Shown one piece after another: positions 41,968-42,909 of a DNA stretch of 58,850 nt. Both the position numbers and the translations under genes were made by a program. Within the stretch, counting starts at the first letter, position 1; the number at the start of each line of letters is the position of its first letter. The notes under the pieces were generated by a model. It was not told the DNA's origin. It saw nothing but the letters and a program-made list of their open reading frames with translations, and made no database searches. Source of the DNA: a bacterium (GTDB lineage Bacteria; Patescibacteriota; Minisyncoccia; Phycocordibacterales; UBA9973); the NCBI GenBank assembly GCA_043748495.1, contig JAYTNB010000050.1, positions 1-58,850 of the forward strand, given 5' to 3'.

Positions 41968-42909
41968 ATGATTCATAAAGCGAAAAAGTCTTTAGGGCTA
42001 AAAAAGTTTCCAAAACAAAACTTCTCGCCCGAGACTTTTCATAAAGCGAAAAAGTCTTTAGGGCAGAATTTCCTGAAATCACAAGTGGCTCTTCGTGCTC
42101 TTTGTGATGCGGGTTTCATAAAAGACACCGATACTGTTGTCGAAATAGGTCCAGGAAAAGGCGCCTTGACTGCTCACTTATTAAATAAAGCAAAGCAAGT
42201 AATAGCGATAGAAATGGATCATGATTTGATAGAACACTTACAAGAAAAGTTCCAAACAGAGATAAATGAAGGGAAATTGATTTTAATAGAAGGAGACTGT
42301 TTGGACTTTGATCCCCTCCTTATTCAAGGAGGGGTGGCTCTAAGCCGGGGTGGTAATCCTGAATTAATCACCACCTCCCCCTTCGGGTACTCCTCCTCGA
42401 TAAGGAGGAGAGAAAATTCGTACAAATTAATCGCAAATATCCCTTATAATATAACTGGTTTAATATTAAAAAAGTTTCTAGAAGAGGAAGACAATAAGCC
42501 AGAAAATATGGTTCTCGTTGTCCAAAAAGAGGTCGCCGAACGTATAGTCTGTCGTGATAATAAAGAAAGTATTTTGTCGCTTTCAGTAAAGCTTTTTTCT
42601 CAACCTAAATACATAATGAAGATTAGCAAGAAGTTTTTCTCTCCTGCTCCTGCTGTAGACTCAGCAATCATAGCGATGTATGACATAAAAAGTGTCGAGA
42701 AGAACTTCACAGATTTATTTTTCAAAATTATAAAAAAGTCTTTTGCTCACAAAAGAAAAGTTCTAAAAAAGAATTTAGAAAGCGTTTTGCAAAAAGAACA
42801 GATAGAAAGTCTATTCCGAGAATTAAAACTACCACTACAAGTCCGCGCAGAGGACATACCATATGAACAATGGTTAAATATTGTGAAATTTTTGGAAAAA
42901 ATTGTATAA
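41968..42909 (+). CDS. rsmA: 16S rRNA (adenine1518/1519-N6) dimethyltransferase with two unusual in-frame insertions
   Basis: KKSLGQNFL, EIGPGKGALT and NIPYNITG. The start is taken as ATG 41968, directly after the pcrA stop; the ORF track starts at 41917 inside pcrA. Confidence 0.88.
   Translation: MIHKAKKSLGLKKFPKQNFSPETFHKAKKSLGQNFLKSQVALRALCDAGFIKDTDTVVEIGPGKGALTAHLLNKAKQVIAIEMDHDLIEHLQEKFQTEINEGKLILIEGDCLDFDPLLIQGGVALSRGGNPELITTSPFGYSSSIRRRENSYKLIANIPYNITGLILKKFLEEEDNKPENMVLVVQKEVAERIVCRDNKESILSLSVKLFSQPKYIMKISKKFFSPAPAVDSAIIAMYDIKSVEKNFTDLFFKIIKKSFAHKRKVLKKNLESVLQKEQIESLFRELKLPLQVRAEDIPYEQWLNIVKFLEKIV
42313..42410 (+). repeat. GC-rich (~56% GC, hand count) multi-hairpin element inserted in frame in rsmA
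   Basis: CCCCTCCTT-attc-AAGGAGGGG, GGTGGT...ACCACC and CTCCTCCT-cgat-AAGGAGGAG. It sits between the GDxLxFD and NIPYN motifs, where KsgA proteins normally have about 20 residues; here there are 40. Confidence 0.7.

Follow-up and report, generated by a model that had tools for sequence, protein, structure and literature searches.

The in-frame colonisation of essential genes by palindromic DNA has been seen as a peculiarity of Rickettsia, and its occurrence elsewhere was merely conjectured in a 2024 review (PMC10969869). The Rickettsia palindromic elements (RPEs) are repeats of ~100-150 bp located in frame in unrelated housekeeping genes (Ogata et al. 2000, 2002, reviewed in PMC10969869). A second class of palindromes, the BoxC/PIT/TMECO repeats, has a published intrastrand-triplex architecture, for which the TMECO consensus reads CCCTCNCCC N3-6 GGGNGAGGG N3 GGGNGAGGG (Holder et al. 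2015, PMC4666352). Twenty-three TMECO copies, always intergenic, are present in E. coli MG1655, and the motif, found in more than 260 genomes and enriched in Enterobacteria and Cyanobacteria, is associated with variable loci and rearrangement hot spots, with no link to mobile elements (PMC4666352). Two further systems, REP/REPIN-RAYT (REPtron) and the MITE with its parent IS, combine solo short hairpin repeats with an inverted pair of them bracketing one small enzyme gene, which encodes a tyrosine (HUH) or DDE transposase. To our knowledge, the origin and spread of the BoxC/PIT/TMECO repeats have stayed unexplained since the 1990s, and we know of no transposase either for RPEs or for the element family described here.

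The element analyzed here resides in the rsmA gene of a patescibacterial genome (assembly G000), in a window of 58,850 nt, that is, the whole stretch of DNA that was analyzed. Its family resembles the RPEs in being a palindromic repeat placed in frame in unrelated protein genes, where it encodes a conserved peptide in fold-compatible loops, and in that about half of its copies are intragenic. The likeness is one of behaviour and no identity of family is claimed. RPEs belong to Alphaproteobacteria, whereas the element belongs to Patescibacteria and is GC-rich in an AT-rich genome, and it is further set off from RPEs by a triplex-type mirror layout, a cross-phylum range and a candidate DUF559 partner. 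In the reading that we consider probable, a mobile family of nested palindromes with triplex-type halves has left one of its non-autonomous, MITE-like members in rsmA, where the host would tolerate it as a translated loop.

Composition and parts of the element in rsmA

The locus comprises the following features.

41968-42909, + strand: host ORF rsmA (16S rRNA A1518/A1519 dimethyltransferase; Pfam RrnaAD, E 8e-59)
42312-42413, + strand: whole palindromic element, 102 nt = 34 codons, in-frame reading (D)PLLIQGGVALSRGGNPELITTSPFGYSSSIRRR(E)
42313-42334, + strand: HP1, pyrimidine block CCCCTCCTT, loop ATTC, purine block AAGGAGGGG
42336-42346, + strand: HPa, mini-hairpin GGCT-CTA-AGCC, between HP1 and the third block
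42347-42377, + strand: HP2, central hairpin GGGGTGGTAAT / ATCACCACCTC, with an AT-rich loop and two G/T-rich arms
42378-42388, + strand: HPb, mini-hairpin CCC-TTCG-GGG
42390-42410, + strand: HP3, CTCCTCCT, loop CGAT, AAGGAGGAG

The ORF at 41968-42909 is the only long one there and contains the element in frame. The limits of the element were set by alignment to a 93% identical copy in the uvrC gene of the sister genome G008, and a covariance model (R1), built from 16 copies of the family, matches 42312-42410 with 82.4 bits. The parts follow the order HP1, an optional HPa, HP2, HPb and HP3. HPa is absent from some copies of the family, which have a 3-nt spacer in its place, and across copies HPb presents a variable loop (TTCG, TACG, TGCG) on a covarying stem (CCC/GGG, GCCC/GGGC). 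A Shine-Dalgarno-like AAGGAGG is contained in the purine block of HP1, and a second one in HP3.

The GC content of the 100 nt starting at 42313 is 0.56, compared with a genome mean of 0.34, at the 99.9th percentile of such 100-nt intervals in the 596-kb assembly. The sequence agrees with the preliminary description, which had reported a hairpin-built segment of ~56% GC at 42313-42410. Folded as single-stranded RNA, the element is far more stable than its dinucleotide shuffles (+ strand, z = -4.4; - strand, z = -5.3), and none of 200 shuffles was equally stable. Searches against Rfam gave no real match for the window copy, just mir-627-like noise at E 0.3, and no match for 18 cross-phylum loci. 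Readings of the segment as a plain compositional island or as a tRNA-like, riboswitch or CRISPR repeat sequence were all rejected. The absence of a second copy, which had been noticed for the window, was confirmed by four methods (blastn-short with word size 7, nhmmer, regular expressions and the covariance model) and extends to the rest of the 596-kb, 62-contig, 74%-complete assembly.

Repeat family, copy polymorphism and triplex-type layout

In the related genomes the element is a repeat, and some of its copies lie within genes. Model R1 detects 85 distinct loci in 22 of the 93 species genomes of the genus, and BLAST with a 111-nt query finds element matches in 24 of 41 relatives. The latter search retrieved an identical rsmA insertion in G008, whose RsmA is 98% identical to the one studied here, together with the 93% identical copy inside G008 uvrC and partial or diverged copies in G024, G020, G012, G005 and G011. 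The outcome in which the element would be unique and devoid of repeats, contemplated in the preliminary description, did not occur, as the uvrC copy and at least 120 stretches with the core pattern of the family (see below) attest. In size, ends and copy number the family behaves as a MITE: it measures 80-105 nt, has inverted ends TTCCCCTC...GAGGAGAA and is present in 1-16 copies in each of the related genomes that carry it, with one here. Longer versions with the same ends carry DUF559, at most a candidate for the enzyme that moves the element.

Comparison of G008 with G000 showed that copies are present in one genome and missing from the other. Besides the identical rsmA copy, G008 has three further copies without a counterpart at the orthologous positions of G000, where the flanks compared are 93-97% identical. 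In uvrC a 109-nt copy of G008 is found opposite 31 unrelated nucleotides of G000 at C57:12661-12691 (+78 nt, a multiple of three), and in tsaD a 103-nt copy is found opposite 22 unrelated nucleotides at C34:4634-4655 (+81 nt, likewise a multiple of three). The third is a 555-nt version bearing DUF559, with nothing at the matching position G000:C36:4750. Copies within one genome may be nearly or fully alike. G050 has two 91-nt copies of 100% identity with unrelated flanks, one in a phosphoglucosamine-mutase-like (glmM-like) gene and the other in tgt, and the identity between copies reaches 93% in G008 and 96-97% for pairs in G072 and G057. Read together, the presence/absence pattern and the near-identical pairs point to recent movement. 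A convincing target-site duplication was found neither in the filled/empty pairs nor in the two identical G050 copies. Since the empty sites, moreover, hold short unrelated sequences, the copies seem to have replaced a short segment instead of being cleanly inserted. The replaced segments measure 22-31 nt and the flanks of the element are A/T-rich (TTTA...TAAA).

In each half of the element a pyrimidine block pairs with a purine block to form a hairpin, and the purine arm is then mirrored by a third block made of G and T. The mirror rule, according to which the third block is the purine arm backwards with A answered by A or T, is followed perfectly in 77 of 94 halves across the genus, compared with 33 for a non-mirrored control, which is a weak one because G-rich runs are nearly symmetric. 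In the rsmA element the rule is kept at nine of nine positions in the left half (AAGGAGGGG to GGGGTGGTA) and at nine of nine in the right half, on the other strand (GAGGAGGAG to GAGGTGGTG). Each arm of HP2 tracks its own neighbouring hairpin (GAGGGG to GGGGTG and GAGGAG to GAGGTG), and this behaviour of the arms accounts for the conserved G.T mismatch inside HP2. It suggests that in HP2 the mirror constraint outranks Watson-Crick pairing.

As judged from its block layout, the element has the published intrastrand-triplex architecture of BoxC/PIT/TMECO. Both share the succession pyrimidine - loop - purine - spacer - mirrored G/T block, the palindromic double units, the richness in G/C and the multiplicity of copies; both are common in Enterobacteria and Cyanobacteria, and both are associated with variable loci. 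The strict TMECO consensus is not fitted by the G000 blocks CCCCTCCTT / AAGGAGGGG / GGGGTGGTA, and the second spacer has 12 nt and a hairpin of its own in the G000 element, in contrast to 3 nt in TMECO. That consensus is approached more closely by other types in the genus (CCTCTCC../GGGTGAGG) and by those copies whose spacer is 3 nt long. A further difference is that the E. coli motif is reported as always intergenic and unlinked to mobile genes, whereas the family described here occurs in frame in long ORFs (27 of 61 loci), essential genes among them, and shares its ends with DUF559 cassettes.

Association with DUF559 genes

The HP2 loop of the 555-nt version in G008 contains a 116-codon ORF, with HP1-HPa-GGGGTGGTGAT on one side and ATCACCACCCC-HPb-HP3 on the other. 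The ORF matches PF04480 (DUF559) with 7.5e-35, PDB 3hrl with 6e-18 and the homing endonuclease I-Bth0305I (3r3p) with 0.008. As in REPtrons and in MITEs with their parent IS, solo hairpin repeats are scattered and the same repeats, inverted, enclose one small enzyme gene. The bracketed gene is of the PD-(D/E)xK Vsr-like DUF559 type, in contrast to the transposases of REPtrons and IS, and a RAYT (IS200/IS605-type tyrosine transposase) is not present between the repeats. We know of no transposition chemistry for the PD-(D/E)xK Vsr-like fold acting alone, and of no nuclease activity or cut site for these DUF559 proteins. I-Bth0305I, an EDxHD/Vsr-like homing endonuclease (3r3p; PMC3424549, PMC9403480), is a relative of the ORF in the long version, and the family has a homing-like trait in that the same sites in rsmA, tsaD, mnmA and uvrB are occupied in scattered species. 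Unlike I-Bth0305I, the family has no intron or intein context, its rsmA copy has no ORF, and many of its sites have unrelated flanks.

The same ends accompany DUF559 well beyond the genus. A cross-phylum scan among species genomes, with a degenerate core pattern equivalent to 25 bases, yielded at least 120 stretches with the same architecture throughout; among the matches listed are Cyanobacteria, Bacteroidota, Acidobacteriota, Alpha-, Beta- and Gammaproteobacteria, Armatimonadota, Firmicutes, Actinobacteria and Patescibacteria. In Flavobacterium, Dysgonamonadaceae, a betaproteobacterium and several members of the CPR, a DUF559 ORF is enclosed by these ends or adjoins them. The DUF559 gene of E. 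coli K-12, ycjD, has its end within a CCCTCTCCC..GAGGGGG hairpin, and a TMECO motif of textbook form, CCCTCGCCCCTCTGGGGAGAGGGTTAGGGTGAGGGG, is located ~160 nt downstream of it, before fabI. Within the genus, hairpin modules that are GC-rich and of matching type flank about 16 of the 20 strong DUF559 genes, the flanks being judged by eye, and in G024 and G053 the LeuRS reading frame includes an entire DUF559 domain together with its ends. The literature searched contained no paper linking DUF559 to palindromic repeats. An independent survey lists DUF559 genes as 14-fold enriched among predicted inversion targets bracketed by inverted repeats (PMC9881135), an enrichment that fits the inverted-repeat flanks described here.

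The physical and genomic association of DUF559 with the element is thus a direct observation, and what the gene does there admits several readings. We put forward only tentatively that the DUF559 nuclease plays some part in the mobility of the element; the gene may equally well be a homing gene that targets palindromes, or a passenger. The main competing account, a serious candidate although short of probable, is that palindromes and DUF559 gene are selfish entities independent of each other. The former would spread by another route, such as recombination or repair by the host where DNA can form hairpins or triplexes, or an unidentified transposase, and DUF559 would be a homing-type gene that targets the palindrome, at the central loop or at the junction of two units, and rides on it. 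Such an account agrees with the solo state of most copies, with the two arrangements of ORF and ends, the ORF lying in some cases in the loop of HP2 and in others between HP3 and HP1, with the relationship of DUF559 to the homing endonuclease I-Bth0305I (3r3p, E 0.008; PMC3424549) and with the E. coli TMECO sites, which are rearrangement hot spots without linked mobile genes (PMC4666352). The cassette and its ends are nevertheless present or absent as one unit in G008 versus G000, and very different DUF559 genes in several phyla bear ends of the matching palindrome type. The distribution within the genus speaks to both sides: strong DUF559 genes and the element co-occur in 14 of the 17 DUF559 genomes, 8 genomes have the element without strong DUF559, and 68 of 93 have neither. 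The co-occurrence is strong, but these counts overstate the association because the genomes are related and not independent.

For the rsmA copy itself we return to the reading as a non-autonomous, MITE-like member of the family. No DUF559 gene is found in the 74%-complete assembly, and as this assembly has no other copy of the element either, the rsmA copy is probably a stranded passenger. In its widest form, which we regard as possible but doubtful, the proposal is that triplex palindromes of the BoxC/PIT/TMECO type are the non-autonomous partners of DUF559 nucleases, within a cross-phylum, nuclease-driven class that would recognise folded hairpin or triplex ends. In CPR bacteria the members of this class would survive as translated loops or whole nuclease domains in RsmA, TsaD, UvrB/C, PolA and LeuRS.

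Reading frame, host loops and significance of the insert

The bias towards an open frame is directly observed. Sixty-one loci were examined, of which 30 have ORFs of at least 50 codons abutting both sides on one strand, and in 27 of these 30 the element is in frame and stop-free. Elements are typically open in just 1-2 of the three frames, so that the chance of this outcome with random frames is ~3e-10. The host genes include those for UvrC, UvrB, PolA, TsaD, MnmA, MurB, Tgt, FtsK, two GlmM-like mutases, RsmA and LeuRS. An in-frame invasion of coding genes by a palindromic repeat, similar to that of RPEs, had been suggested for rsmA in the preliminary description, and the frame counts together with the repeat family in the genus support the suggestion; the literature searched contained no report of RPE-like in-frame elements in CPR. 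In one orientation the element encodes peptides like SPLLVEEGVGGGDLKELPPRPxGTPPQKGGE, or PLLIQGGVALSRGGNPELITTSPFGYSSSIRRR in the present case, and in the opposite orientation the peptide SPLEEYPQGEVDE..STPSLRATPQEGN. A single uvrB site is occupied in one orientation in G011 and G072 and in the other in G081. Two orientations yielding two different peptides imply that the conserved unit is the DNA palindrome and not a protein motif.

Selection in very compact genomes would retain only those copies that keep the frame and lack stops, and for this reason about half of the copies would be found in frame in housekeeping genes. Among the matches listed in the cross-phylum pattern scan, long open frames span 7 of 14 CPR copies versus 3 of 41 cyanobacterial ones, a difference in keeping with how little room CPR genomes leave between genes. 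In tsaD, mnmA and uvrB, too, loops are occupied in several species, and such recurrent sites could reflect strong filtering for permissive loops, homing, or both.

The comparison with other RsmA proteins confirmed that the segment is an insertion, and that it adds residues to a loop while keeping the frame, as had been claimed. The stretch from EGD to NIT has 56 residues here and 30 in 75 of the 120 closest homologues, drawn from a collection of 5.8 billion proteins, a net gain of 26 residues in an uninterrupted ORF; in 98 of the 120 it has 28-30. Source names carried by RsmA homologues include Candidatus Nomurabacteria and Paceibacterota, which identifies the genome as one of the Patescibacteria (CPR). 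The B. subtilis KsgA structures 7v2l and 6ifs align on either side of the insert with 25 fewer residues between. Most of the orthologues in 40 relatives lack any insert; their alignments break into two parts, with query residues 118-150 left out in between, and they have ~10 residues where the RsmA studied here has 36. A metagenome scan for RsmA relatives gave two loci, both without the insert. The 41-residue insert region, searched against the 5.8 billion proteins under the constraints of a word index and a length filter, returned the query alone. A homologous segment in RsmA of unrelated lineages, the finding that had been named as contrary to an insertion, did not appear, the peptide PLLIQGGVALSRGGNPELITTSPFGYSSSIRRR being found, among the RsmA proteins compared, only in this genome and its sister G008. 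The site of entry would be the loop that joins the GDxLxFD strand to the NIPY strand, where before the split of G000 and G008 the element would have replaced ~7-10 loop codons by its 34.

In an AlphaFold2 model built with 70 homologues (mean pLDDT 85.7) the methyltransferase core is mostly at 90 or more, and residues 126-146 fall below 50, between the helix 116-121 and the strand 153-157 that leads into NIPY. The proposed structure prediction hence places the insert in a low-confidence loop between helix and strand, probably a disordered surface loop that the enzyme tolerates. The insert would be transcribed and translated together with rsmA as a flexible surface loop. Its translation is argued by the preservation of the frame, and we infer that its presence is neutral. 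The tryptic peptides expected from a translated insert are GGNPELITTSPFGYSSSIR and one ending in ...PLLIQGGVALSR.

Could the insert instead have been selected as a functional addition to RsmA, such as a new point of contact with the ribosome of CPR bacteria, with a GC content and palindromy that merely follow from a peptide rich in Gly, Pro, Arg and Ser? The conservation of the insertion between G000 and G008 would agree with this, as would the presence of inserts in the same loop in 13 of the 120 closest homologues. Those inserts, however, comprise at least three unrelated peptide types, and in G024 and G012 the loop holds another palindrome type in another phase. In a tree of RsmA with the loop masked, a single-gene tree of weak resolution and without strong support, the insert-bearing sequences are scattered, G012 being sister to G011 and G024 to G019, neither of which has an insert. 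Furthermore, the same DNA is found in intergenic positions as well as within unrelated genes, where it occurs in either orientation and codes for different peptides. The constraints that maintain mirror and hairpins bear on the DNA and are not reflected in the peptide, and the pLDDT of the insert is below 50. We therefore judge a functional extension to be improbable.

Still more improbable is the removal of the element after transcription or translation, in the manner of an intron or intein, leaving the mature enzyme without it. The strong RNA folding of the element would be indirectly in keeping with removal, and CPR bacteria are known to carry insertions in rRNA genes. Against it, the preservation of frame and the lack of stops in 27 of 30 intragenic copies would be unnecessary if the element were removed, and the element has no ORF of its own. 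Against an intron or intein as such stand the absence of any Rfam intron or other family match and the size of 34 codons, too few for an intein. An artefact of assembly or binning, by a chimeric join or foreign GC-rich reads, might be thought of for a compositional outlier in a metagenome-assembled genome and is practically negligible, since the frame is preserved and G008, an independent assembly, carries an insertion that is identical down to its junctions, which rules out a chimera.

The reading of the rsmA segment as a copy of a mobile palindrome family places the in-frame colonisation of essential genes by palindromes in Patescibacteria, where it is polymorphic between near-identical genomes. 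It also joins three subjects that have been treated separately: the BoxC/PIT/TMECO repeats, the widespread orphan nuclease family DUF559 and the odd loop insertions of high GC content known from CPR proteins. For annotation the lesson is that loops of ~30 residues in such proteins, if GC-rich and of low confidence, probably derive from repeats and should be masked in alignments and phylogenies. If the link to the nuclease is true, it would provide a testable mechanism for a repeat class of hundreds of genomes, including that of E. coli, as well as a novel strategy by which selfish DNA occupies an essential gene.

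The 5' end of rsmA and the RsmA loop

The 5' end of rsmA contains a perfect 27-nt direct repeat, TTCATAAAGCGAAAAAGTCTTTAGGGC, located at positions 41972-41998 and 42038-42064 of the window, the two copies lying 66 nt apart and doubling the KKSLGQNFL entry motif of the protein. Residues 1-30 of RsmA have a pLDDT of about 50 in the structure model. Among the homologues, P0024, P0118, P0026, P0014 and P0045 present a different type of insert in the same loop, between GDxLxFD and NIPY, which reads ..F(F/C)SGPRxREDE(G/E)PDHSxxLK.. and is probably another family of GC-rich palindromes. 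In G024, another genome of the genus, an additional copy of the element is placed immediately 5' of the rsmA frame (contig C2; stretch L004, 1367-1462), and the loop of that rsmA itself holds a palindrome copy of a different type.

DUF559 within LeuRS and beside other flanks

A whole DUF559 domain lies in frame within LeuRS of G024 (C1:294435-297731, minus strand; L234), bracketed by CCCTTCCC..GGGAAGGG hairpins in an ORF of at least 866 residues, and a second mini-element, NPSPTLPKGKGVEFKVLPSGEDLGGV, is found farther along. The same arrangement, LeuRS with an in-frame DUF559, occurs in G053:C9, in a frame of 1098 codons. The DUF559 genes of G047:C30 (L265), G069:C4 (L250), G071:C9 (L251) and G070:C5 (L252) are without upstream hairpins and are followed downstream by CCCCCTGATAAGGGGGATTTAGGGGGTTT, in which a pyrimidine block is again combined with a purine block and a G/T block of mirror type.

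In the ycjD-fabI interval of E. coli K-12 (NC_000913.3, 1351040-1351410; L267), the TMECO/BoxC motif is preceded by GGAGACGGTGCTGGAGAATATTC..., a second, diverged copy of the final ~45 nt of ycjD, which may be what is left of a further cassette end.

Composite copies and a possible variable region in the sister genomes

Two composite copies of the element are present in the sister genome G008 (C46:3000-6500; L040), with 80 nt extra (TTACATGAGCAGTACACCTTTCG...) between the central hairpin, HP2, and HPb; a composite with this insert was also found in G005:C106. The orthologous intergenic sites of G000, the genome of the window (C3:8808-8980 and 9867-9993), are occupied by unrelated sequence, partly hairpin-forming. 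A segment of ~3.15 kb in G000 (C36:5343-8492), missing from G008:C44, adjoins the site at which G008 carries the 555-nt DUF559 element, and may represent a variable region beside the repeat.
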